64,000 nucleotides of DNA from an uncultured delta proteobacterium (lineage in GTDB: Bacteria; Desulfobacterota; WTBG01). Numbering within the stretch: position 1 is the first letter of the stretch; the number at the start of each line of letters is the position of its first letter. Location of the stretch: assembly GCA_963793865.1 (NCBI GenBank), contig CAWCBP010000004.1, positions 64,703-128,702 of the forward strand, given 5' to 3'. The position numbers and the translations under genes were made by a program. The notes below the pieces were generated by a model. That model was given only the letters and a program-made list of their open reading frames with translations. It ran no database searches and had not been told where the DNA came from. Below, in pieces: positions 4,328 to 49,322 of this stretch.

Positions 4328-5397
4328 GGTAAACTCCGCTCTGCCGGGCCGGGCGCTGTTCCCCCCAGATTCCGTGCCTCCAATCTGATGGAATGTGTGC
4401 CGCCGGCAAGAGGCTTCTCCGGCACATAACGCACCAGACCTGCCTCCGCCTCATAGCGGTGGCTGACCGGCTTCCCGTCAAGGTACAGCTTGATGGATGA
4501 GATATCGATGCCTGTCCCGTGCTTATCATCAGCGACCCCGGCAACCACCTCGGGCCTCGCGTCTTCAACCACAACCCCCGAAGGTGAAATGCCGCTCACG
4601 GAGGGAATGCCCCGCGCGCAGTAGTCACGTATACCCGCGAAATATGCCTCGGCTTCCATTTTGAGATAGCCGTGGAGGTGGAGCCTTTTCTCGTTTTCCC
4701 GGTGGGTGAGATAGGATGCCTCACCCAGAATTGCCGTGCATTCGGTTTTTCTCAGCACGCTGAAATTTCCGGGAAGCACCCGGGCATTCGGCGCGTTAAG
4801 GCCCTCTCTCATGCGCTCCATGACGCAGGTTGCCAGCTCTCTCGAGGGGTCAGCCGGGGAAAGCTGATAGAAAATGGCGAGGTCATTTTTTCGCTGGTCA
4901 TGAATATTGGAATTGTGATGGATGCTGATAAAAAGGTCGGCGGCGTTGCTGCCGATCCTGCTTCTGGCCAGCAGGTCATCAGGTAAACCTTTGGACGTGC
5001 CGCGGGCAACCGCCGTGTCGGCAGTGCGCGTCATAACCGGATGAGCCCCGGCGTTATAAAGCATGCCCCAGAGGTAGAGGGCCACACCCAGATTTACCTC
5101 CGATTCCTTCATCCCCAGTGTTCCCACCGCTCCCCCGAACTGACCCCCGTGCCCCGGGTCTATGACAATGACCTTATCCCTCAAGGCGGCGGTATCGAGT
5201 TCTGCCGCCTGGAAGGGGGAGGGCGGTATCTCCGGCAGCGAGGTGCAGGACGAGATAAGCATCAGGAACACCGCGGCCAGGAACAAATCTATCAGGAGAT
5301 TTATCCGCCCGATGCGTTTTGATCTCCTGTTGCTGCCCGGTGCGTGCCTTTTACAATGCGCCATTGTCGCTAAGGGAATGGGCACAATCCTGCTCAC
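4303..5397 (-). CDS. N-acetylmuramoyl-L-alanine amidase (Amidase_3, AmiC-like) lipoprotein
   Basis: IDPGHGGQFGGAVGTLGMKESEV...ADLFISIHHNS...ILGEASYL is a canonical Amidase_3 zinc site. The N-terminal signal with LISSC lipobox is followed by a C-terminal Ig-like domain. It overlaps the downstream paralog by 25 bp. An alternative start lies at 5364. Confidence 0.8.
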   Translation of the reverse strand: MSRIVPIPLATMAHCKRHAPGSNRRSKRIGRINLLIDLFLAAVFLMLISSCTSLPEIPPSPFQAAELDTAALRDKVIVIDPGHGGQFGGAVGTLGMKESEVNLGVALYLWGMLYNAGAHPVMTRTADTAVARGTSKGLPDDLLARSRIGSNAADLFISIHHNSNIHDQRKNDLAIFYQLSPADPSRELATCVMERMREGLNAPNARVLPGNFSVLRKTECTAILGEASYLTHRENEKRLHLHGYLKMEAEAYFAGIRDYCARGIPSVSGISPSGVVVEDARPEVVAGVADDKHGTGIDISSIKLYLDGKPVSHRYEAEAGLVRYVPEKPLAGGTHSIRLEARNLGGTAPGPAERSLPCRVRPQA

Positions 5398-5544
5398 AGT
5401 TTTTCCACGGGTAAGGTGACTCCAGCCTGCATGATCATATCACAAAAGCCCTGACCGGGGCATCCGGAATGTTGACCGCAGCGCCGTATATATAATAAGG
5501 TTGCAATTATCCTGGTTATTAGCTATAGTAACAGCCGGGTAGCA

Positions 5545-7860
5545 TTGTATAAACTCCAGTTAAAACGAGCACTTGTTGATAACCCCCGCACAGGATATGT
5601 AGAGGAGTTCCATCTTGTGAAATTTCCTGAATTTCATAAGCCGAAGGCATCGTCGATACTGCAGGAAAAAACCCGGCGCAAGCGGGAATTATTCATTATC
5701 ATTGCCGTCGTGCTCTCCATTGTCGTCCTCACCCTCTTGCAGGCATCCATTACCGCTTCCGAAAGCCAGCTGCCCACGACCAAAAACATCCTCATTTACG
5801 GTCTCATCAATATTAATATAACCCTCCTGCTGCTGCTCATTTTTCTGGTGGTGCGCAATGTCGTCAAGCTTGTCTTCGAGCGCAGGCGGGGCATCCTCGG
5901 CGCAAAGCTGCGGACCCGGTTAATAGCGGCATTTGTCGGCCTGTCCATCGTTCCCTCCGTCCTCCTCTTCTGGGTCGCCGCGGAATTTATAACCGCCACC
6001 GTAGAAAGGTGGTTCAGCTCCCAGGTGGAATACTCCCTGTCGCAATCACTCGAGGTCGCCGAGGTATATTACCAGAATACCACTGATAACGCCATGCACT
6101 ATGCCCGGCAAATCAGCAGGATCATTACCAGGGACAGGCTTTTAAGCGAGGCCAATCTCAAGCAGCTCCAGGATTTCATCAATCAGAAGCAGGAAGAATA
6201 CAACCTCGGGGTGGTTGAGGTCTTCTCCTCAACCCTGGAGGAACTGGTAAAGTCCATGAATCCCGGCGTGCCGGTAAAGGGCTTTGTCGGTTCCGATTCA
6301 GCGCTTGTGCAAAAAGGTTTGGAGGGAAAGGAGATTACCAAAATCCAGCCGGCAGGTTCAGGTGATCTCATCAGGGGAGTGGCGCCCATCTACTCCAGCT
6401 GGAAAAAGGACGAGGTGGTCGGGACGCTGGTGGTCAACTACTATGTACCCAAAAGTCTCGTTTCCAAGATGTCCACCATTTCCTACGCCTTCAGGGAGTA
6501 CAAGCAGCAGGAGCTGCTGAAGAATCCCATAAAAACGGCGAACCTGATGATTCTGGCCATTGTCACCCTGCTGATTATCTTCTCCGCCACCTGGTTCGGC
6601 TTTTTTCTTTCCAAGGGACTTACGGGACCTATCCAGCAGCTGGCTGAGGCGACCAACCGCATCACCCAGGGTGACCTGGATTTCACCATAGAAACGGGCA
6701 CTGATGATGAAATGGGAAGCCTGGTTACCTCCTTTAACAAGATGACCGCGGACCTGAAAGCGAGCAAAATCAAAATTGAACAGGCCACCCATGATCTGCA
6801 GGAAAGCAATCTGGAACTGGAGCGCCGGCGGCGGTACACGGAAACCATCCTTACCAACGTCGCGGCAGGAGTGGTCGCCATCGACGAAAGGGGCCTCATA
6901 ACCAGCATAAACAAATCCGCTGAAAATCTCCTCAGGACCACTGCCGGGGTGTCCCTCTCCAAACCCTACGAAGAGGCATTTGCCCAGGAGCAGGTTCAGG
7001 CTGTGCGGCAGCTGGTCAGGGACATACTCTCCTCGGGGAGGAACTCCTTCGACCAGCAGATCAGGCTCAACTTTCCCGACGACAGCATCGAGCTGCTGGT
7101 AAGCGGAACCATGCTGCACGATGACCAGGAAAACTATCTGGGACTGGTTCTGGTGTTCGAAGACATAACCCACATCCAGAAGGCGCAGCGGGCGGCGGCA
7201 TGGCGGGAGGTGGCGCGCAGAATTGCCCATGAAATCAAAAATCCCCTGACCCCCATTCAGCTCTCCGCGCAGCGCCTGAGGAAAAAGTACATGGACCGGT
7301 TCGAGGCCGACGGGAAAATCTTCGATGAATGCACCCGGATCATCATTGACCAGACGGAAGAGATCAAAAACCTGGTCAGCGAATTTTCAAACTTTGCCCG
7401 GATGCCCGCGACCACGCCGCAGCCCAACGATCTCACCGAGGTAATCAATGAGGCAGTCGCCCTTTTTACCGCCTCGCTGAAAGACATATCCATAACGGTG
7501 ATAGAAAAGAGCAAGCCGCCCGTCTTCAGCCTCGACAAGGACCAGATGAAGCGGGCGATCATAAACATCATCGACAATGCCATTGATGCCATGAGCGGCA
7601 AGGGAAGCATCGTCATTGAAATATCCCATGACCAGATATTCAACATTGCCCGGATCGAGATAGCCGACACCGGCTGCGGCATACCCCACGGCACGCGGGA
7701 AAAGCTCTTCGAGCCCTACTTTTCCACCAAAAAGTCAAATATGGGCCTCGGCCTGTCAATCGTGAGCACCATCATTTCCGATCACAACGGCTACATCAGG
7801 GTCAGGGACAATGATCCCCGGGGAACCAAATTTATTATCGAGCTGCCGGTCAGGATGTAA
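5545..7860 (+). CDS. ntrY: sensor histidine kinase, NtrY-like (TM-HAMP-PAS-HisKA-HATPase)
   Basis: N-terminal TM helices, HAMP, PAS, the H-box HEIKNPLTPIQLSAQRL, and N/G1/G2 ATP-binding boxes (DNAIDAM, DTGCGIP, GLGLSIV). The annotated start codon is TTG, so the true start is uncertain. A -35 TTGCAA / -10 TATAGT sits upstream near 5485-5525. Confidence 0.8.
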   Translation: MYKLQLKRALVDNPRTGYVEEFHLVKFPEFHKPKASSILQEKTRRKRELFIIIAVVLSIVVLTLLQASITASESQLPTTKNILIYGLININITLLLLLIFLVVRNVVKLVFERRRGILGAKLRTRLIAAFVGLSIVPSVLLFWVAAEFITATVERWFSSQVEYSLSQSLEVAEVYYQNTTDNAMHYARQISRIITRDRLLSEANLKQLQDFINQKQEEYNLGVVEVFSSTLEELVKSMNPGVPVKGFVGSDSALVQKGLEGKEITKIQPAGSGDLIRGVAPIYSSWKKDEVVGTLVVNYYVPKSLVSKMSTISYAFREYKQQELLKNPIKTANLMILAIVTLLIIFSATWFGFFLSKGLTGPIQQLAEATNRITQGDLDFTIETGTDDEMGSLVTSFNKMTADLKASKIKIEQATHDLQESNLELERRRRYTETILTNVAAGVVAIDERGLITSINKSAENLLRTTAGVSLSKPYEEAFAQEQVQAVRQLVRDILSSGRNSFDQQIRLNFPDDSIELLVSGTMLHDDQENYLGLVLVFEDITHIQKAQRAAAWREVARRIAHEIKNPLTPIQLSAQRLRKKYMDRFEADGKIFDECTRIIIDQTEEIKNLVSEFSNFARMPATTPQPNDLTEVINEAVALFTASLKDISITVIEKSKPPVFSLDKDQMKRAIINIIDNAIDAMSGKGSIVIEISHDQIFNIARIEIADTGCGIPHGTREKLFEPYFSTKKSNMGLGLSIVSTIISDHNGYIRVRDNDPRGTKFIIELPVRM

Positions 7861-31889: not shown

Positions 31890-34800
31890 CTAATTCGGGT
31901 AGCTGCACCAATCGGGTTCTGCGCATGTAGGAGACTCAGGACAGGGATTCTGTATGCTGTTCCTGCCAAAGTCCGCCTTGAACCTGCTTGCATCAGTCCC
32001 ATCCACATCTGCGTCGCAATCAAAATCGCCGCGGCAGGGATTGAAGCTATTACAGGGAAAATTAAACTGGCCTCTACCAAAATAGAGTTTGAAGATGGAT
32101 GCATCCGAACCGTCGACATCTGCATCACAGTTAAAGTTTCCTTCACATTCGCAGGCATCACCCACTGTATTACCTCCGGGCGGAAGGTTGTCTTCCTGTC
32201 CGGGATTGTAATTTATGGGACAGTTGTCACACCCATCTCCAAAGCCATCGCCATCCGCCTCCGCCTGATCTGCATTAGCAACAGTGGGGCAGTTATCGAT
32301 GTCACCGCAAACGGTATCACCATCAACGTCGTTGTTGGGATCATTTGGACAGATGTCGTCGAAATCGCATGTTCCATCCCCATCCGTGTCACCGCCGCCT
32401 GCGGTAATACAGACGCCGCTCTGGCATTGATCAGGAATGGAGCAGGTGTCACCATCGTTGCAGATGGTTCCGTCGGGCAGCGGATCGGCTGCACAGGTTC
32501 CGGCAGGTTCTTCACAGACACCGGTATTGCACTGGTCGGTCAGGGAGGAGCAGTCCACCGTCAACCCTGCCTGACACATCTCAGTCAAGAGGTTGCAGGT
32601 CTCGGTACCGTTGCACGCAAGGCCGTCATCGCAGTCCGCGTCATCGCCGCAATTTACGCAGGGCGGCACGGACGTCGCCCAGGGCGTGTAGTCAACGTTA
32701 CCGGAAACCGCATCGCAACCGGCGGCTCCAGGTCCACTCACGCAGCCCCACCAGTTGTTTTCAGCAGTTAATGTTGCAGCCAACTGATTATTAACACCCG
32801 GCGTGTTTCCGTCTATGCTATTGTTTTCAATTAAAATTGTACCTGGCCAGCCATTATCCATATAAATACCATCTGACGCGTTGTTTTTAATCGCATTACA
32901 TTGAATGGAAACATCCTTGGGTCCGTAGGTTCCATTCACTGTCAACGCAGCATCAGCAATGGACTGAATATCAATACCCCACAAATTATTTTCAATAATA
33001 TTGTTTTCAACTACTATTGTTCTGGCATCAACAATCCAGATCGCATCATTGGTTGCATTATCATGGATGTAATTGTTTTTCACCTCAAGGGCTCCGGTAC
33101 CTGCAGTAATGGATTGCAGCACGATGCCGGAACACTTGGTATTAGTTACCTCATTATTTTCAATTAACAGCCCCGAATAATCCAGGTGGGCCGTTAAATC
33201 AGGGCCAGGAAAGCCCTCTGACTCATATCCGACATAAATACCGAATCCCCAATAGCCCGGCTGGATATTTGATACTTTGCAATTAGTGATGTGAATATTC
33301 TGCAAGTTATCCAGCGGTTTGGGGTCATATCCGCATACCATACCGTCCTGGGTGAAATTGGTTACATCAATATTGTTAAATGTAACGTTGCCCGATTTGA
33401 TTTTAACGCCGGTTGTCCATGTCGGCACCAGACCGGTTCCATCGAGCACTGCCCCGTCGCACCCGGTAGCCGTCAGCGCCTTGGGAATGATTACCTGTTC
33501 CGGGTAGGTGCCGGCGGCAACATATACCGTACCACCCGGCACCACTGCATCTACACCGAGCTGGATGTATTTGAAAGACTCGTTAAAGTTACCTCGTGCC
33601 GGATGCGCTGCGATGACCGTGCTGTCATCGTTTACAAAGATGTGGCTGCGGTTGCCCTCCGCTGTTCCATCTGCTGCGCGCCGGTCCAGCACAAAGGCGT
33701 CATTGTTGGCAACCGAAAGTGCCAGCACACTCTGTTGGTAATCCGGGTCAAAGAGTGCACCGCCCGTATTCCAAACAATGTCCCATTCGTTGTGGGTGGC
33801 TTCGAAGCTGGGACATTCACCGTGGGTCCCATATTGTTCCCCAGGAGTTGTTACTCATCGTCCTGTTATCGGCATCCGCCTGATTATTGGTATAGTTCAT
33901 TATCCCGCCCTTGGTGTCGTAAATTGTGTTGTTGCTGATGGTGACAGTATTGTTATACTGGACCACCACACCATTGCGGGTGTTGTAAATTGTATTGCCG
34001 GTGATGCTGATGCCGGTGGCGGCACCGGAACCGACACAGATGGCGATTCCGCCCCAAGTGCTCATGGCTCCCGACTGGGCAGGTACATAGATTGTATTAT
34101 CCGTAATCGCAATTCCAGAAAGGCCCAGGTTGACGGGCACCCGTATCAGGGAGTACACCAGTTCATTAAATGCCGGCAGGGGTGCCGGGGGAGGATACGG
34201 GGGCATTGCACTGTGTGTAATCTCCAGATCCTGCAGGGTTACATTATTTGCCCTGATCTCGAAGACCGAGACGGCGGCAGTGGTGCCCTGTACAATGGCT
34301 CCCCCGCCGGAAGGTCCTAAGATGGTGACCGGCTTATTCACAATTATAGTTGCTGCAACATTGTATGTTCCCGCTGCCACATTAATTATAGTGGCATCTG
34401 CACCATAAACAACGGTACGGCCCCAGAGCGCCTCAGCGGTAATTTCGTTGTTTTCTCCGCTGCCTATATAGTTTTCCCAGCCGCCCGTTCCCAGTTGTAC
34501 GCTTCCCATGTAGTCTGCTGCTCCCTGTATCTCAACTATATAACCGTCACGGTCAACCTCATTCAGGGCCATTATGGCATAGGCGGTTTCCTGGATAGTT
34601 TCATCGCCGTCGTTTGGAATTACGTAGTTTGAGTTCCAGGCAAAGCCACCCCCGGCTATCTGGTAGCCGGCAAGAATCGCCGCCAAATCACTTAAGCTGC
34701 CGGCTGCCGCATGCTCACCTGCAGTCGGGTCAAACTCCTCACCCACCAATGCAAGTGCATATACAGCTCCGGCAAGTCCTATGACATCATAGTATGCATC

Positions 34801-36199: not shown

Positions 36200-39100
36200 T
36201 CAGTATATCTCCCCGAACAGGCAATAATCACAGCAGTTCATTCTGCCCAGGGCTTTATCAATCATCACCAGCACATCAAAGATGTCTATGTCATTATCGC
36301 TCTCACAGTTCGGGGTACCGGATGGATTTCCGCAATAGGGAGGCAAACCATTGGGCACATCCCCGTTACCAATCTGGCAGTCAGTAGCCGTCTGGAGATT
36401 CAGGATAATATCAACCGCTTCAAGGATATCAAACAGGTCCACTATGCCGTCGCCGCAGCAGGTCGGAGCACCGCAGGTCCCGCCGATGCAGTCCTGGGGA
36501 TAAATATCACCGCAGGTGGTGAAGCAGACCTCGCCCGGGCTTTCGCAAACGCACAGATCCTCGTTATACTGATCTGAAATCTTGCTGGCAACCGGACAAA
36601 GATCAACGCAGGCGTCCTCGCCACAGGTATCCTGCTCAGGCCCTGCTGAATAGACTATCCGGGCAACGGTTCCTCTTCCCTGTGTAATAATGGCCGACGG
36701 ATCGGTCGAGTACAGGACTATCCTGCAGCACCCGTCTGCCTGCTCATTAGCTGAGCAGCTGAAATCGAGGGCGCGGTCAGGATCAACCACACACTGGGTG
36801 CATACCAGGTTGTCCTCCCCGCCTGCGCACTCACAGATATCCGTGACCATCGCCCGTATACTATGTTCCGGGTTAATGAGATTCAGATCAACCAGCCCCG
36901 ACTCGCTGTTGGGCTGCATGTTGGTGTCGCCAATATCCACAATCACCTTGCCGATGTCGATTTCTACACTATCAGTACCCCATTCGCAGGTGTCGGTTAC
37001 CGTTATTTCGTATTGCGCAATTTTATCAAGCTGCTGGCAGGAATCGTCAATGGTCAACCTCCAGCAGCAGTTATCGATCTGGTCAATGCTTAAGAATGGT
37101 TCTGCCGGATCGATTGACCACGCCAGGCACGACGGATCGAACGGGTCGCAGTCAGAGCAGACAGTAAAATCGATGACATCATTACATGTGGCGGCAAGTC
37201 CGCGCCTTCCCGGCCGGTTGTATGCGGGATCATTAATCTCTTCACCGGGGCACGTCCTGCCCCGGGCAATTTCAATACCGCACACACAGCCCGGAATCTT
37301 GGTTCCAACACACGTACCGGCAACGCAGACATCGTCTTTGGTACAGGAGTCGGCATCATTGCAGGGTAGTGTATTGTTGGGATTGCTGCAGCCCACTCCT
37401 ACTGTGCATATGTCGCCAGTGCAAACATTATTGTCGGAACAGAGTGTATTGTCAGGCGTTCCGTTACAGGTACCGTCTGAGCAGGTGTCGTTCTGGGTGC
37501 AGGCCAGCGTATCATCGCAGGGCAGAGTGTTGTTAGGATGGGAGCATGTTCCGGAACCGTTGCAGACGTCATTGGTGCAGACGTTGCCATCGTCATCGGT
37601 ACAGGTGGTACCGTTAGCGGTATAGCAGTTATCTGCGGATTCGTTACAAGTGTTGTTGCAATCAGGCCCGCTGCTGCAGGGATCGCCGGCATGGACTGAG
37701 CAACTCCCTACGCCGCAGGTATCGGTACCGTTGCAGTATAAGCCGTCATCGCAGGCGGTACCGTCAGGAGGATAGCAGTTGTCGGCAGTCTCGTTGCATG
37801 TATTGTTGCAGGCCGGCCCGCCAATGCAGGGGTCGCCGGCATGCACTGAGCAACTCCCGCCGCTGCAGGTATCGGTACCATTGCAGTATACGCTGTCATC
37901 GCAGGGCAGAGTGTTGTTAGAATGGGAGCAGGTTCCGGAGCCGTCGCAGACATCGTTGGTGCAGACGTTGCCGTCATCGGTACAGGAGGTGCCGCTTGAG
38001 GTGGAGCAGTTATCTGCGGATTCGTTGCAGGTATTGTTGCAATCAGGCCCGCTGCTGCAGGGATCGCCGGCATGGACTGAGCAACTCCCGCCGCTGCAGG
38101 TATCGGTACCATTGCAGTATAAGCCGTCAGTGCAGGCGGTGCCGTTAGGGGGATAGCAGTTGTCGGCAGCCTCGTTGCAGGTGTTGTTGCAGATGGGCCC
38201 GCCGCTGCAGGGGTCCCCGGCATGAACAGAACAACTCCCGCCGCTGCAGGTATCCGTACCAGTGCAGTACAAGCCGTCATTGCAGGATGCGGTGTTGTTG
38301 GTATGCACGCAGCCGGTCGAGATATTACAGCTGTCAGTTAGTGCAGATGTTGCTGTCATCACAATTTGGTGCCGCTCCTCCAACGCATGTCCCGCCTGAA
38401 CAGGTGTCACTGGTGGTGCAGGCGTTTCCGTCATTGCAGGATGCGGTGTTGTTGGTATGCACGCAGCCGGTCGAGATATTGCAGCTGTCGTTGGTGCAGA
38501 CGTTGCTGTCATCACAATTTGGTGCCGCTCCTCCAACGCATGTCCCGCCTGAACAGGTGTCACTGGTGGTGCAGGCGTTTCCGTCATTGCAGGATGCGGT
38601 GTTGTTGGTATGCACGCAGCCGGTCGAGATATTGCAGCTATCGTTGGTGCAGACGTTGCTGTCATCACAGCTCAGTGCCGCTCCTCCAACGCATGTCCCG
38701 CCTGAACAGGTGTCACTGGTGGTGCAGGCGTTTCCGTCGCTGCAGGATGCGGTGTTGTTGGTATGCACGCAGCCGGTCGAGATATTGCAGCTATCGTTGG
38801 TACAGACGTTGCTGTCATCACAGCTCAGTGCCGCTCCTCCAACGCATGTCCCGCCTGAACAGGTGTCACTGGTGGTGCAGGCGTTTCCGTCATTGCAGGA
38901 TGCGGTGTTGTTGGTATGCACGCAGCCGGTCGAGATATTGCAGCTGTCGTTGGTGCAGATGTTGCTGTCATCACAATTTGGTGCCGCTCCTCCAACGCAT
39001 GTCCCGCCTGAACAGGTGTCACTGGTGGTGCAGGCGTTTCCGTCATTGCAGGATGCGGTGTTGTTGGTATGCACGCAGCCGGTCGAGATATTGCAGTTGT

Positions 39101-41069
39101 CGTTGGTGCAGACGTTGCTGTCATCACAATTTGGTGCCGCTCCTCCAACGCATGTCCCGCCTGAACAGGTGTCACTGGTGGTGCAGGCGTTTCCGTCATT
39201 GCAGGATGCGGTGTTGTTGGTATGCACGCAGCCGGTCGAGATATTGCAGCTGTCGTTGGTGCAGACGTTGCTGTCATCACAATTCGGTGCCGCTCCTCCA
39301 ACGCATGTCCCGCCTGAACAGGTGTCACTGGTGGTGCAGGCGTTTCCGTCATTGCAGGATGCGGTGTTGTTGGTATGCACGCAGCCGGTCGAGATATTGC
39401 AGCTATCGTTGGTGCAGACGTTGCTGTCATCACAATTTAGTGCCGCTCCTCCAACGCATGTCCCGCCTGAACAGGTGTCACTGGTGGTGCAGGCGTTTCC
39501 GTCATTGCAGGATGCGGTGTTGTTGGTATGCACGCAGCCGGTCGAGATATTGCAGCTATCGTTGGTGCAGACGTTGCTGTCATCACAATTAGGTGCCGCT
39601 CCTCCAACGCATGTCCCGCCTGAACAGGTGTCACTGGTGGTGCAGGCGTTTCCGTCATTGCAGGATGCGGTGTTGTTGGTATGCACGCAGCCGGTCGAGA
39701 TATTGCAGCTGTCGTTGGTGCAGGCGTTGCTGTCATCACAGCTCAGTGCCGCACCACCAACGCATGTCCCGCCTGAACAGGTGTCACTGGTGGTGCAGGC
39801 GTTTCCGTCATTGCAGGATGCGGTGTTGTTGGTATGCACGCAGCCGGTCGAGATATTGCAGCTATCGTTGGTGCAGATGTTGCTATCATCACAGCTCAGT
39901 GCCGCTCCACCAACGCATGTCCCGCCTGAACAGGTGTCACTGGTGGTGCAGGCGTTTCCGTCATTGCAGGATGCGGTGTTGTTGGTATGGGTGCACGTTC
40001 CGGAGCCGTCGCAGAGATCGTCGGTGCAGACATTGCCATCATCGGCGCAGGATGTCCCGCTTGTGGTGTAGCAGTTATCTCCGGATTCGTTACAGGTGTT
40101 GTTGCACTCAGAGCCACCAGTGCAGGGGTCTCCAGAGTGCACACAGCTCCCTCCGCTGCAGGTGTCGGCGCCGTTGCAGTATAAGCCGTCATCACAGGAA
40201 TACCCATCCTCTCTCGGGGTGGAAACGCACTGACCAGTTCTGGTGCTGCATACACCGACGCTGCAGGCATCATCCAGGTCTGAACAGTCGACATTCTGGC
40301 AAATATTAGGATCGGTTGCAGTGGTGACACAATCTGACGGGTCAGAATTCGGCTGCTCCGAGGCAATAGCACAGGAATCGGAAATTGGCACACAATCACT
40401 GTCTACGCCACAACTAGCTCCGCTTACGGCACACATGTTATTTTCGCAACGCTCGCCATACACGATGTCATCTATTTCTATCAGGCATTTGACGAACGCA
40501 TCTTCAGTAGTACAGTCTGTCCCAAAACAAGTGTGTGTAATACCATAGGGATCAGCATCTTCTCCTGATGGTTCGCTTCCGCCCACATTTACATAACAAA
40601 TGGAAGTAAATGCTTCAATTTCAACGCTATTAGTACACCTATCATACCTATCATCGTTACACTGGAAAAATCTCGGGCTGAAAGAGCTCTGAGTCGCCGG
40701 AGGACCACCCTCAACGGTCACACAGAGTGCATAGTTCGCGTATGTGTCAAAGTCCGAATCGAAAAGTATACAGCTATTACCCGTGTTAGCACCAGACCAT
40801 CTTGTGTCATCAAAGTTGAACGTCACAGTCAGTTCAAACTGATTCTCACCCGGTCCCACACAGTACTCGGTTACGTCCTTTTGACCCGGTTCGTCATCCA
40901 TCCCTTGCAGGTCTACGCTACAGACCTGCGCCGCTACCGGCAAAACATCGATGGATGAGTAGCCCAAAACGATTGCAAACGTGAAGATCAGTAGTATGAG
41001 AAAGCTTTTTGTTTCTTTCCCGATGATTATTGATGATGAACGTTTTCCCGCTACTTTTCTCAATATCAA
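36200..41069 (-). CDS. giant secreted Cys-rich repeat protein (about 1620 aa) with about 11 tandem 50-aa repeats and a C-terminal dockerin-like domain; one 1-bp frameshift near 38340
   Basis: N-terminal TM/signal sequence. Repeats are CDDSNVCTNDSCNISTGCVHTNNTASCNDGNACTTSDTCSGGTCVGGAAPN. The downstream modules are diverged (CNGTDTCSGGSCSVHAGDPC...). The terminal region GDGIVDLFDILEAVDIIL...SDNDIDIFDVLVMIDKALG resembles paired dockerin Ca-binding segments. ORFs 38334..41069 and 36200..38668 are joined by removing one inserted T in the last repeat. Confidence 0.7.
38340..39960. repeat. tandem array of about 11 near-identical 150-bp coding repeats (in-frame, inside the giant Cys-rich gene)
   Basis: Copies show more than 95 % nucleotide identity with scattered point differences (AALS/AAPN/AALN variants). 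Every alternative-frame ORF in the six-frame track across this span is repeat shadow. Confidence 0.9.
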
Positions 41070-44332: not shown

Positions 44333-44409
44333 GCGCCCATAGCTCAGCTGGATAGAGCGGCAGACTACGAATCTGTAGGTCGGGGGTTCGAATCCCTCTG
44401 GGCGTACCA
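44333..44409 (+). tRNA. tRNA-Arg (anticodon ACG)
   Basis: Cloverleaf: acceptor GCGCCCA/TGGGCGT, D-arm GCTCAGCTGGATAGAGC, anticodon stem GCAGA/TCTGT with loop CTACGAA, T-arm GGGGGTTCGAATCCCTC, and a 3' CCA. Confidence 0.9.
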
Positions 44410-45662: not shown

Positions 45663-45898
45663 ATATTAAGTCTCACATATAATACATAATTTGTCAATTG
45701 AAATTACAAATTATGTATTTTTCGGTAAGCAAGCACTTTTTTGCCGACAAGTGATGTTAATTGAACCATTTGCCCATACGAAACGTATTTAGATTTATAT
45801 AAAATGGCACCCACGAGCATATACACTTTGTTCCGATTGCGAAATAATGATCTTCCTGTTATAGTTTACTTATTTCCCTTTATCATGATGGAGAGGAT

Positions 45899-46792
45899 AT
45901 GAAAAATTTTACGCTTATAGCAGTGCTTGCGTTCATTGTCGGCCTGATGGGCAGCCCCGCACTCGGAGTCGAATACAGCACAGACTTTTTAGAGCCCGGC
46001 AACCCGGGAGGCGTTTCGGGAAGTTTGAAAACCTTTGATGACGGGTGGACGCTTGAAATCGGTAGTACCGTTGATGCGGACATCTGGATTAGCGACCTGC
46101 CGGAGGACATGATAACGGCAGGATTTATCCTCGAGTATGATGAATCAAGGGTATCCATTGCTAATATAGCAGTTTATGACGGTACCCTTCCCGGTCCGTG
46201 GGATGGCGATATGACTACTATTGTCGACGATCCTTCGAAACCGGGCATACTGGCGGTGATTGTAGGGAATTTTTCTTGCATCGATCCCGATGCAAGCAGA
46301 GATATTGCAATCGCCCGGGTTACTTTTGAATGTATATCAACCGAGGATGCCCAGGTCACCGTTAAACCGGTGTCGGATTTCGATACCATAGTAAGCTGCG
46401 AGGGAACAGTATATGATCCCCAAATAGCTCTTCATACCATCACCATATTTCAGGAGGGAACGGGACCGTCAACTACCACCACCTCCCCCTCAACCACGAC
46501 GTCGGCAGTAATCACATCATCAACTACCAGTTCACCGTCAACTACCACAACAACCATCAAGCGATGCCTGTCCGAGTCAATCTACGGCGGATACGCAGAA
46601 GAAACAAAACTTCTACGGCACTTCCGCGACAATGTATTACGCCAAACCGCTGAAGGCCGTGAACTGATAAATCTGTATTACCTGTGGAGCCCTGTCATCG
46701 TGAGCGCAATGGAAGGTAATGATGAGTTGAGGACATGGGTAAAGGAAATGATTGATGATGTATTGCCCGTGATACAAGAGGCAGTGGAATAG
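45899..46792 (+). CDS. secreted cohesin-like domain protein with Ser/Thr-rich linker and conserved C-terminal roughly 70-aa domain
   Basis: Signal peptide MKNFTLIAVLAFIVGLMGSPALG. The cohesin-like strands AGFILEYDESRVSIANIAVYDG and IAIARVTFECISTEDAQVTVKP. A (S/T)-rich linker. A C-terminal domain C-x4-IYG...LLRHFRDNVLRQTAEGRELINLYY... Confidence 0.55.
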   Translation: MKNFTLIAVLAFIVGLMGSPALGVEYSTDFLEPGNPGGVSGSLKTFDDGWTLEIGSTVDADIWISDLPEDMITAGFILEYDESRVSIANIAVYDGTLPGPWDGDMTTIVDDPSKPGILAVIVGNFSCIDPDASRDIAIARVTFECISTEDAQVTVKPVSDFDTIVSCEGTVYDPQIALHTITIFQEGTGPSTTTTSPSTTTSAVITSSTTSSPSTTTTTIKRCLSESIYGGYAEETKLLRHFRDNVLRQTAEGRELINLYYLWSPVIVSAMEGNDELRTWVKEMIDDVLPVIQEAVE

Positions 46793-46926
46793 TCAATCCA
46801 TTTACCCGCCATAACGAGGCGGGACCGCTCCCGACGCACCACGTAAAAGCACCTGCAGTTTATGCAGGTGCTTTTCCTGTTGCCGATGACGTAAAATAAT
46901 TTGTTAATTAACCGACGTGCCCTTGA

Positions 46927-47805
46927 TTACAAGCGGATTTCCCAGCCGTGTTTGCGCCGATAAGCGAACCAATAAACAAAACCGACCATGAACGAACCGC
47001 CCACGATATTACCCAGGGTCACGGGAATGAGATTGACAAAGAAGAAATTATACCAGGTAAGGTTGGGAAAATCAGCCGCTACCTTTCCCGCCAACTGCCA
47101 GGCTTCCGGGGGCATCCATTGCTTGGCTAAAATGGCCCCGGGGATGTAGTACATGTTGGCAACGGAATGCTCAAACCCGCAGGCGACAAATGCGGTGATG
47201 GGGAAAATAATGGAGAGGATTTTGTCGGTGTTGCTTCGGCCGCCCATGCACAGCCACACCGCCAGGCACACAAGCGCGTTGCACATGATGCCCAGGGCAA
47301 ACAGGTCTATAAACGGCTTTCCGCACTTGGCGTTGGAGATGATCATCGCGTTCAGCCATATAATGCCCTTGCCGAACATGTAGCGCCTGCAGAGCAGCAT
47401 GATATATACGGTGCCGATGGCGCCGACAAAATTCCCCAGGTAGACGATTACCCAGTTGCGCAGGAGCTGGCGTACCGTGACCCTGCCGCTGACACAGGCC
47501 ATGACAATGAGGTTGTTGCCGGTAAAGAGTTCGGCCCCCGCCAGGACCACCAGGATCAGGCCGAGACTAAAGGTAAGCCCTCCCAGCAGCCTGCCCATGC
47601 CGAAATAGACATTGCCTTCAGCGCCGGCGGTTACGGTTGTGGAAAAAACGGCCCCCAGTGCGATAAAGGCGCCCGCAAGGATGGCCAGCACAAACAGCGT
47701 CCAAAAATCCATATTGGCCTTGGTGACGCCGACATTCTCCGCCTTCTCGGCGATTTGAGCGGGTGGAAATGCATCCATACTGATTATTGGGTCATTATTG
47801 CTCAT
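46927..47805 (-). CDS. formate/nitrite transporter (FNT family channel)
   Basis: 292 aa with 6 TM helices and FNT signature segments (...LLGGLTFSLGLILVVLAGAELFTGNNL...). Confidence 0.8.
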   Translation of the reverse strand: MSNNDPIISMDAFPPAQIAEKAENVGVTKANMDFWTLFVLAILAGAFIALGAVFSTTVTAGAEGNVYFGMGRLLGGLTFSLGLILVVLAGAELFTGNNLIVMACVSGRVTVRQLLRNWVIVYLGNFVGAIGTVYIMLLCRRYMFGKGIIWLNAMIISNAKCGKPFIDLFALGIMCNALVCLAVWLCMGGRSNTDKILSIIFPITAFVACGFEHSVANMYYIPGAILAKQWMPPEAWQLAGKVAADFPNLTWYNFFFVNLIPVTLGNIVGGSFMVGFVYWFAYRRKHGWEIRL

Positions 47806-47979
47806 GCCTTAAACTCCTCCTTCTTTTTTTCCGCACGCTCAGTGAGGAAAAGGGTTAAGATTACAAACTTCCCGTCAGAAAACATCTCCTGACAGGCAAG
47901 AACATACACACGGCTTCTACCCTGGGGCGAACGCTGCCGGGTGAATAGCCTCCTGCCGGCAGCGAGTTCGCCAACGGTA

Positions 47980-48393
47980 TCATTCCCACCCGATGGGTTG
48001 ATACCCCCTCTCGCTCAGACAGCTATTCACATAATTCATAAAAACCGGGTCGGGATCTTTTATGCGGAAAAGCGCGTGCGTAACGGTTGATGCAGCTCCC
48101 GCCGCCGCTCCGGCTGCCGCCCCCCGTCCCACGTGACCGAACATCGATCCCGCGGCGGCCCCTGCCGCCGCGCCGACCACGCTGTTTTCAACCGTGTTTT
48201 TGGTAATCTCCCTGGCTTTTTGCGACTTCAGGTAGCTGTCGGCCATCAGGCAGCATTCTTCTATGTCCCTGTTCGCCTGTTCAGCACCCACGGTGTTCAG
48301 GTGCCCGTTCGGATAGAGGATGGGGCTCCTGGTCGTGCTGCACCCGCCCGCAATGACAATGCTTACAAAAAAGAACAGTATCGTTTTCTTCAT
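47980..48393 (-). CDS. glycine-zipper outer-membrane lipoprotein (SlyB/17-kDa-antigen-like)
   Basis: Signal with GGCS lipobox; AAGAAAGSMFGHVGRGAAAGAAAGAAS glycine zipper. Confidence 0.65.
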   Translation of the reverse strand: MKKTILFFFVSIVIAGGCSTTRSPILYPNGHLNTVGAEQANRDIEECCLMADSYLKSQKAREITKNTVENSVVGAAAGAAAGSMFGHVGRGAAAGAAAGAASTVTHALFRIKDPDPVFMNYVNSCLSERGYQPIGWE

Positions 48394-48647
48394 AACTGTT
48401 CCTCCGTTCCCCCTCGGGGCATTACCCTATAGCATATAATCATAAACAGGTAAACAAATTTTTCAATCCGGCAGGCACTTATCCCCGGGGTGCATTCCCG
48501 GCAATCATATCCCTCAACATTTCGGCATCTTTTGCCGATAGGCACATACGAGGTGCTGCACGGATTGGCATCTATCGGGAAAGGCAAAACGGGGTTTTTC
48601 TTAAAGGTCGCACATCACACGGATGAACGTCATACGTGAGGAAAAAC

Positions 48648-49322
48648 ATGAAAAAAACAATCTTCAGCCTGTGCATCCTGTTGTACTGGCTTTTCCTGTT
48701 TCCCTCAAGCCCCGCGGGAATTATGCCGGCTGCCGCCGAAGTGGAAATAATAGACCATATGATGACCCGCAATCCACAGTGGAACACCGGCTGCTCAATA
48801 CCGATTCCCGCTGATACCTTCGACCAGACGGACAAGGAAGCGAATTGCTGGTTCTCCTGGAATGAAGCCACGGTAGCGGACGAGATTGCCTGTCAATGGT
48901 ACAAGCCGGACGGCGCACTGTTCACCGAACAGAAAAACCTCACCTCCTATCCGTCAGGCTGCTGGTATTCCAGGATATTGATAAACGGCCATGCCCCGGC
49001 GAAACTGCCGGGTGAATGGCAGGTGAAGGTTTATTTTGCGGGCACCCTGCAATTCACCGAGCACTTTACCCTGCTTGGAGATCCATCCGCGGATGGGTGC
49101 CCCGCGGAACTGATCTATGGTCAAGACTCCGCGGAAACAAACCTGCTGCGATATCTGCGTGATGCGTTCTTGCGTCAAAGCCCTGAAGGCCGGGAGATGA
49201 TCGCGCTCTACTACCGGTACGGTCCGATTATGGCACGTGCGCTTAGAGAGGACGAAGATCTCAGGCAGGACGTGAAAATGATGGCTGACGCGCTGCTGGC
49301 ATGGTTATCTGATTTAATATAA
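48648..49322 (+). CDS. secreted protein sharing the C-terminal roughly 70-aa domain with the 45899..46792 product
   Basis: Signal MKKTIFSLCILLYWLFLFPSSPAG. The C-terminal C-PAELIYG...LLRYLRDAFLRQSPEGREMIALYY... aligns at about 45 % identity with the other copy. GAGGA lies before the ATG at 48648. Confidence 0.55.
   Translation: MKKTIFSLCILLYWLFLFPSSPAGIMPAAAEVEIIDHMMTRNPQWNTGCSIPIPADTFDQTDKEANCWFSWNEATVADEIACQWYKPDGALFTEQKNLTSYPSGCWYSRILINGHAPAKLPGEWQVKVYFAGTLQFTEHFTLLGDPSADGCPAELIYGQDSAETNLLRYLRDAFLRQSPEGREMIALYYRYGPIMARALREDEDLRQDVKMMADALLAWLSDLI

Follow-up and report, generated by a model that had tools for sequence, protein, structure and literature searches.

A divergent form of the CFI-box-CTERM domain shared by two modular proteins of an uncultured delta proteobacterium

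Two genes with a common C-terminal domain

The stretch of DNA analysed here, referred to as the window, is 64,000 nt from an uncultured delta proteobacterium (assembly GCA_963793865.1, contig CAWCBP010000004.1, positions 64,703 to 128,702); it is bacterial, encoding PriA, and contains two genes, on the same strand and 1.9 kb apart, whose products end in the same type of domain. The first gene, at 45899..46792 (+) and preceded by a GGAGAGG Shine-Dalgarno sequence, encodes protein A, of 297 aa. The second, encoding protein B, ends at 49322 (+) and has two possible starts, a GTG at 48636, which would give a product of 228 aa, and an ATG at 48648, which would give 224 aa. The ATG is favoured because the 17 orthologues all begin at MKK and because a GAGGA Shine-Dalgarno sequence precedes it. 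From inspection of their N-termini, both are modular proteins with predicted Sec-type export signals.

Comparison of the two proteins by BLASTP returns a single significant segment, in which residues 223-296 of A align without gaps to residues 155-228 of B (32 of 74 identical, 43%, E 3e-18). These values agree with the coordinates, the motif string and the roughly 45% identity over some 70 aa given in a preliminary description of the region. The remainder of A has no BLASTP match to the remainder of B, which confirms its claim that the two bodies differ. The domain of A runs from Cys223 to residue 297 and, with the stop codon, occupies 46565..46792 (+); that of B begins at Cys155 in the numbering of the 228 aa product and, with the stop codon, occupies 49098..49322 (+). 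When a hidden Markov model (HMM) of the domain was run at maximum sensitivity over the six reading frames of the window, exactly two copies were found, those of A (122 bits) and B (103 bits).

Assignment to a catalogued family

The preliminary description had treated this domain as unrecognised. It is, however, already catalogued: the curated cut-off for NCBIfam NF041770, named CFI-box-CTERM, is 40 bits, and both copies exceed it. Protein A scores 55.8 bits, with residues 227-288 on positions 6-68 of the 69 in the profile, and protein B scores 45.4 bits over residues 159-219. All 44 diverse relatives that were aligned are likewise above the cut-off. The chains of A and B stop 0-9 residues past the match, placing it at the extreme C-terminus, and the RefSeq product name "CFI-box-CTERM domain-containing protein" is already in use for genes on plasmids. 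This membership lowers the novelty of the domain; A and B are new, divergent members of a catalogued family that has no described function.

The two copies share with the family its length of about 69 profile positions, its extreme C-terminal site and its main motifs, which are an opening cysteine, YG, LR-x-FRD-x-x-L and G-x3-(I/V)-x-x-YY-x-x-(S)P. In A the opening cysteine and the YG are C223 and Y229-G230, and in B they are C155 and Y161-G162. The box that gives the family its name, C-F-I-A-T-A-A-Y-G at profile positions 1-9, is absent from both, being replaced by C-L-S-E-S-I-Y-G in A and C-P-A-E-L-I-Y-G in B. The spacing is also one residue shorter, C-x5-YG as against the canonical C-x6-YG, and the profile match begins only at position 6. 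When the canonical box was grafted in silico onto the domain of A, changing CLSESIYGG to CFIATAAYGS, the domain scored 82.8 bits instead of 59.5 and was aligned from profile position 1, on the cysteine. Since the graft restores both the 23 bits and the alignment from the first position, the window copies are read as a divergent, polar-box subfamily, in which the cysteine and YG have been kept and the hydrophobic F-I-A-T-A has been exchanged for polar residues.

Pfam has no family for the domain, whether searched with both proteins, with the isolated domain or with the 44 relatives; profile searches of the PDB sequences with alignments of the domain, of protein A and of protein B gave no significant match; and in a Foldseek search of PDB folds no solved structure resembled the domain model described below.

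Predicted structure of the domain

An AlphaFold2 (AF2) model of the 79 aa domain segment, built from an alignment of 44 sequences, has a mean predicted local distance difference test score (pLDDT) of 93.7 and a predicted template modelling score of 0.80. It contains four helices, at residues 6-11 (a short one, directly after the cysteine), 16-27, 33-53 and 57-78 of the segment. The net charge is -7 for the domain of A and -4 for that of B, with a family mean of -7.4. The module is thus modelled as an independently folding, acidic, four-helix unit of about 75 residues. No stretch resembling a transmembrane helix is present in the domain across the family, where the maximum Kyte-Doolittle mean over 19 residues is 1.40; in A and B the maxima are 0.78 and 0.47. 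The helical tail lacking a membrane segment that had been predicted from the letters of the sequence is therefore borne out.

Distribution and modularity

When 1.84 billion cluster representatives (clustered at 50% identity) were searched exhaustively with a domain profile, 5,856 clusters matched at E<=1e-3, 922 of them at E<=1e-10. The similarity is therefore not limited to a pair of neighbouring paralogues. The 142 full-length carriers match 43 Pfam families, all of them extracellular in type, among them Lcl_C, CarboxypepD_reg, beta-helix, TSP_3, subtilase, papain, trypsin, lectin, CHAP and LRR_5. A C-terminal module shuffled among unrelated cargo, as had been proposed from the two window proteins, is what these clusters and at least 43 body families indicate. 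An N-terminus resembling a signal peptide is found in 78% of the carriers of 150 aa or more whose sequence starts with Met, and most of the others look like truncated gene calls. In 0.5 Mb of metagenome loci there are 122 copies, often two to six within 10-15 kb.

Features of the domain were counted in 232 family members (228 for the opening position). In 200 it ends no more than 5 residues before the C-terminus; it has a cysteine at the opening position in 219 of 228, and in 193 this is the only cysteine that it contains. The 25 residues before the cysteine are more than 50% T, S or P in 53% of members; the residue immediately preceding the cysteine is not conserved.

The domain of A is 55-63% identical to domains that are found on unrelated cargo in other samples, compared with 43% to the domain of B in the same window. 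This indicates that A and B carry two old lineages of the module and that they are not the outcome of a recent duplication. Other searches recovered very little: a word-indexed homology search with the 82 aa tail gave 4 fragments only, a scan of genome contigs gave a single locus, and a search of a phage collection gave one weak match. The single locus is on a 3.3 kb contig of a metagenome-assembled genome labelled "uncultured Anaerolineaceae", a label that is unreliable because the contig is so short.

Copies on proteins without signal peptides

Canonical copies, with the hydrophobic box, were found by tblastn in 21 plasmid records, about half of which are typed as conjugative. Examples are RCFIATAIYG...LRAWRDRVL...YYAISP from Cupriavidus and MCFIASAVYG... 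from Burkholderia. The plasmid carriers are small proteins that have no signal peptide, some of them fused to a cold-shock domain and a zinc ribbon. Four such loci, from Burkholderia, Cupriavidus, Methylophaga and Thioalkalivibrio and with three of the four typed as conjugative, are L089 (4647..5228), L090 (5809..6222), L091 (4761..5222) and L094 (3779..4231). The genes adjoining the plasmid copies include those for DUF1173, the anti-restriction protein Lar, orphan methylases, a PD-(D/E)XK nuclease and DUF4326. A further carrier that has no signal peptide is a kinase-like protein of 644 aa from Calothrix, in which the domain follows a linker rich in S, T and P.

The plasmid examples are basic, whereas the window copies are acidic (-4 to -7) and are found behind Thr-rich linkers on proteins with predicted signal peptides. 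Judged from charge and N-terminus, the family falls into at least two classes, one acidic and putatively secreted, the other basic and borne by proteins that have no signal peptide.

The body of protein A

By inspection, protein A has a predicted signal peptide at residues 1-23 (45899..45967, +; MKNFTLIAVLAFIVGLMGSPALG), which is conserved in its orthologues and would be cleaved at MKNFTLIAVLAFIVGLMGSPALG|VEY; AF2 places a helix at residues 2-16. This is followed by a body at residues 24-187 (45968..46459, +) and a Thr/Ser/Pro-rich linker at residues 188-222 (46460..46564, +; TGPSTTTTSPSTTTSAVITSSTTSSPSTTTTTIKR). In the model of the full-length protein the body is an all-beta sandwich at residues 25-185, with pLDDT mostly 71-90, the linker is disordered, with pLDDT below 50, and the tail is helical.

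The top 21 Foldseek matches of the body in the PDB are all cohesins, the best being 6kgf_C (E 7.2e-9, TM-target 0.74, root mean square deviation 2.9 A). Full-length protein A has no match to the Pfam Cohesin family at E<=1, and the isolated body does not reach the threshold of that family. The homologue P0022, in which the body is 60% identical to that of A, does carry PF00963. Taken with the Foldseek matches this makes "cohesin-like", the term used in the preliminary description, correct at the level of the fold, though not by the Pfam threshold.

The same type of body is found with three different tails, the CFI-box module, Cys-rich repeats (P0022) and a Cys-less relative of the module (P0023-P0036). 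In the last group a cohesin-like body and a Thr-rich linker are arranged as in A, and the tail, SSWQSAYAMMWGED...LSLLRxFR[DN], scores 30 bits on NF041770, which is below the cut-off, and continues into a C-terminal extension of about 50 aa.

The orthologues of A in two syntenic assemblies are 53-59% identical to it overall. In most orthologues of A the domain (75-83%) is far better conserved than the body (45-52%). In the orthologue P0008 the tail is 97% identical to that of A and the body 64%. The orthologues of B show the opposite trend, with 72-83% identity in the body and 55-65% in the tail. P0008 and the contrasting conservation of A and B suggest exchange or conversion of tails, and differing constraints on the two copies.

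The predicted mature N-terminus of protein A, residues 24-48 (45968..46040), reads EY-x-TDFLEPGNPGG...SLKTFD and is near-invariant across the homologues of A. Despite this conservation, residues 32-47 have pLDDT below 50. The segment lies outside the canonical cohesin fold.

The body of protein B

Protein B has a predicted signal peptide (48648..48737, +; MKKTIFSLCILLYWLFLFPSSPAGIMPAAA), with the alternative GTG start at 48636 lying just upstream of it; cleavage is predicted, again by inspection of the N-terminus, at MKKTIFSLCILLYWLFLFPSSPAGIMPAAA|EVE. The body that follows, of about 120 aa (48738..49097, +), contains four cysteines, C53, C71, C86 and C109, that are invariant in the 17 orthologues. 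It has no match in Pfam, in NCBIfam or among the PDB sequences. Bodies of this type are present on other carriers of the module, P0058 and P0160.

Dockerin-like tails upstream

Upstream of A, on the opposite strand, are two proteins with tails that resemble dockerins. The Cys-rich giant encoded at 36200..38668 (-) ends in a tail at 36200..36460 (-; CCGDGIVDLFDILEAVDIIL ... CESDNDIDIFDVLVMIDKAL) in which a D/N-rich loop and helix are duplicated. The beta-helix/TSP3 protein at 31890..33728 (-) ends in a tail at 31962..32153 (-) with two CDADVDG[ST]DAS.F segments, 37 aa apart; in a regular expression scan this was the only open reading frame (ORF) of the window with such a pair. By inspection, both tails appear to have two tandem segments, each a D/N-rich, putatively calcium-binding loop and a helix, without statistical support. 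The tail of the Cys-rich giant is near-identical in the syntenic locus L004, where the second loop, DGDGDIDIFD, is clearer. For the dockerin-tailed giants of the preliminary description there are thus two proteins ending in duplicated segments that resemble dockerins, while the formal Pfam thresholds are not reached; that these are dockerin-tailed giants is plausible.

In other metagenomes, relatives of the Cys-rich and TSP3-type repeats of these giants bear CFI-box tails (P0102, P0230, P0075, P0165), whereas those in the window bear dockerin-like tails. That the same types of body are found with either tail indicates that the two are interchanged on similar cargo.

The ORF of the Cys-rich giant, 36200..38668, and the ORF 38334..41069 (both -) overlap by 335 nt, one frame apart; the upstream frame ends in '...CDDSNICTN*' and the downstream frame is sensible only from '...TDSCNISTGC'. 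The whole of 36200..41069 (-) has the appearance of a single gene, encoding some 1,600 aa, with a frameshift inside its repeats, which could be an assembly error or the mark of a pseudogene. Its layout would be a signal peptide, a conserved N-terminal domain, many Cys repeats similar to Dicty_CTDC and the dockerin-like tail. The relative in L004 has a Thr-rich stretch in place of the array of repeats, and there too the gene is split.

Comparison with known systems

Anchoring scaffoldins combine cohesins and flexible linkers with SLH modules or an LPXTG motif (PMC12484212). Protein A resembles them in that a single module with the cohesin fold is joined by a flexible linker of low complexity to a non-catalytic module at the C-terminus, and in being encoded near proteins with dockerin-like tails; it differs from them in ending in neither an SLH module nor a sortase motif. 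The setting is also unlike that of a cellulosome: the window has no cellulases, and its proteins with dockerin-like tails are built of Cys-rich repeats or a beta-helix.

The layout of body, Thr-rich linker and module is equal to that of surface proteins built as cargo, stalk and anchor. Like the PEP-CTERM, LPXTG, PGF-CTERM and MYXO-CTERM signals, the module is found at the extreme C-terminus of many unrelated exported cargos, with several copies per region and often behind a Thr-rich stalk, and the MYXO-CTERM signal, like the CFI-box module, is opened by an invariant cysteine. Those signals, however, have a transmembrane helix and a basic tail, while the module is a folded, acidic, helical domain of 75 aa. 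On this anatomy (a folded helical acidic module with no transmembrane helix and no basic cluster) the classical sorting signals were ruled out as its identity, as was the C-terminal domain (CTD) of the type IX secretion system (T9SS). Clustering of neighbouring genes at 88 loci identified no recurrent sortase-like gene near the carriers.

Dockerins are also helical, non-catalytic C-terminal tags of about 70 aa on diverse secreted cargo, and the same types of body bear either tail. They have, however, duplicated calcium-binding loops, which the module does not, and the module has neither sequence nor fold similarity to them nor a known receptor.

Possible functions of the module

The interpretation that is favoured here, tentatively and at somewhat less than an even chance, is that the module of the secreted subfamily is a cargo-independent foot for retention or assembly at the envelope; protein A would by this reading be the counterpart of an anchoring scaffoldin. 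Whether it bound non-covalently or by way of its one invariant cysteine, the module would hold or assemble the exported protein at the cell envelope, with the Thr-rich stalk pushing the cargo outward. Protein A would then be made of one cohesin, a stalk and a foot, the CFI-box module standing in place of SLH or LPXTG, and the dockerin-like tails of its neighbours could be what the cohesin docks. If this is so, the module would be a new means of cell-surface retention beside SLH, LPXTG and the PEP-CTERM-type signals.

Several findings weigh against a role in anchoring. What characterises known sorting signals, a transmembrane helix and a basic tail, is absent from the domain, and there are relatives (P0023-P0036) in which the cysteine is missing. 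The copies on proteins with no signal peptide are basic (+4 and +8), those of the secreted subfamily being acidic (mean -7.4), and the existence of these canonical copies argues against sorting or anchoring at the envelope as the role of the family as a whole. In the neighbour clustering (88 loci, 0.5 Mb) no gene for a specific partner, receptor or processing enzyme recurs near the carriers. The cohesin and dockerin assignments are themselves below the Pfam cut-offs, the isolated body of A scoring 13.7 bits on PF00963 (cut-off 24.1, E 0.076) and the tail of the beta-helix/TSP3 protein 15.8 bits on Dockerin_1 (PF00404; cut-off 22.9, E 0.016), and the tail of the Cys-rich giant has no Pfam Dockerin match even at E<=10. 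The literature library searched held no relevant paper under the family name, the box motifs or the assembly accessions.

The module might instead bind to itself and anchor nothing, the helical domain forming dimers or oligomers that raise the avidity of an adhesin-like or enzymatic fusion partner, with disulfides between the cysteines stapling exported chains together. The presence of the family on both sides of the membrane, in the cold-shock and kinase-like fusions as well as in exported proteins, fits a function that is independent of context, and a helical bundle with one unpaired invariant cysteine and no dedicated partner gene nearby would suit such a role, as would the DsbA-family gene that the syntenic loci encode a few kb farther downstream. 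The AF2 monomer is, however, compact and very confident without a partner, domains with a net charge near -7 are not expected to pack against their own kind without bridging cations, and there is no obvious interface in the invariant polar set R/R/D/Y/Y; self-association is considered unlikely, though it deserves serious weight. Rather less probable is a cleavable pro-domain, a handle for export or processing or an intramolecular chaperone, akin to the T9SS CTD or the chaperones of phage tail spikes, that would be removed at or near the boundary cysteine, possibly autocatalytically. A near-invariant nucleophilic residue exactly at the boundary of linker and domain, the position of the domain at the extreme C-terminus and the beta-helix bodies among the cargos are in keeping with this, and the best fold match in BFVD is a phage protein described as an "intramolecular chaperone auto-processing domain". 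That match is not significant (E 3.4, probability 0.51, TM-query 0.60, root mean square deviation 3.6 A over 72 columns) and Foldseek of the PDB gave nothing; neither Peptidase_S74 nor any other Pfam family is matched by the 44 members, a chaperone specific to one fold would not suit cargo as varied in fold as this, the residue before the cysteine varies, and the Cys-less relatives retain the rest of the domain.

The cysteine is also central to a bolder proposal, which is regarded as a long shot. The module would be a device for covalent attachment independent of sortase, or for self-processing, acting through a thioester or disulfide of the boundary cysteine whose effect is either to attach the cargo and stalk to some component of the envelope or to release the domain. 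An anaerobic bacterium of sediments would in this way display giant Cys-rich proteins on its surface by means of a cohesin-dockerin system that is not cellulosomal, with A as its anchoring scaffoldin. Finally, the common tail might have no wider meaning, having recently been duplicated or converted between genes that are neighbours. The two genes are indeed close together and on the same strand, and the near-identical tail of P0008 on a more divergent body indicates that tails are exchanged. Pairs of A and B orthologues are, however, syntenic in diverged genomes, and the tail of A is closer to tails on unrelated cargo than to that of B, making local paralogy improbable to the point of being negligible; as the whole explanation it is ruled out by the 5,856 clusters that have the domain.

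CFI-box-CTERM is thus widespread, in more than 5,800 clusters, and yet has no Pfam entry, solved structure or paper in the library searched. The window pairs a cohesin-fold protein with a small Cys-rich protein, both with this type of tail, beside proteins with dockerin-like tails. This pairing, the four-helix model and the split between acidic and basic copies make the function of the family testable, as an anchor, an oligomeriser or a cleavable handle.

Gene order and neighbouring genes

Two diverged assemblies have the same gene order as the window, which is PAS-histidine kinase, DUF4143 ATPase, A, FocA, Gly-zipper lipoprotein, B, PilZ, FAD oxidoreductase. Locus L004 retains a protein with the dockerin-like tail and the order from there onward, while L001, whose contig starts just upstream, retains the order from the histidine kinase. 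The genes for the formate/nitrite transporter and the Gly-zipper lipoprotein (lipobox IAGGC), at 46927..48393 (-), are always between A and B and on the opposite strand (L001, L004, L005).

The only neighbour family that recurs near the carriers is that of generic tetratricopeptide repeat (TPR) proteins, at 8 of the 88 loci, which probably reflects the general abundance of TPR proteins in those organisms; several of the other apparent families in the clustering are artefacts of antisense ORFs. Examples of the TPR proteins are at L018 (563..5927, four in tandem), L006 (11551..12348), L012 (10408..11205) and L064 (708..2540), and one has a multi-pass membrane N-terminal half.

In L001 (GCA_016294905.1) two extra genes, at 5254..7660 (-), are present between the DUF4143 ATPase and the orthologue of A, one of them encoding a multihaem cytochrome with eight CxxCH motifs. 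In the window this position has only a spacer of 236 bp (45663..45898), with a tRNA-Arg at 44333..44409 beyond the ATPase gene, and this is a variable spot.

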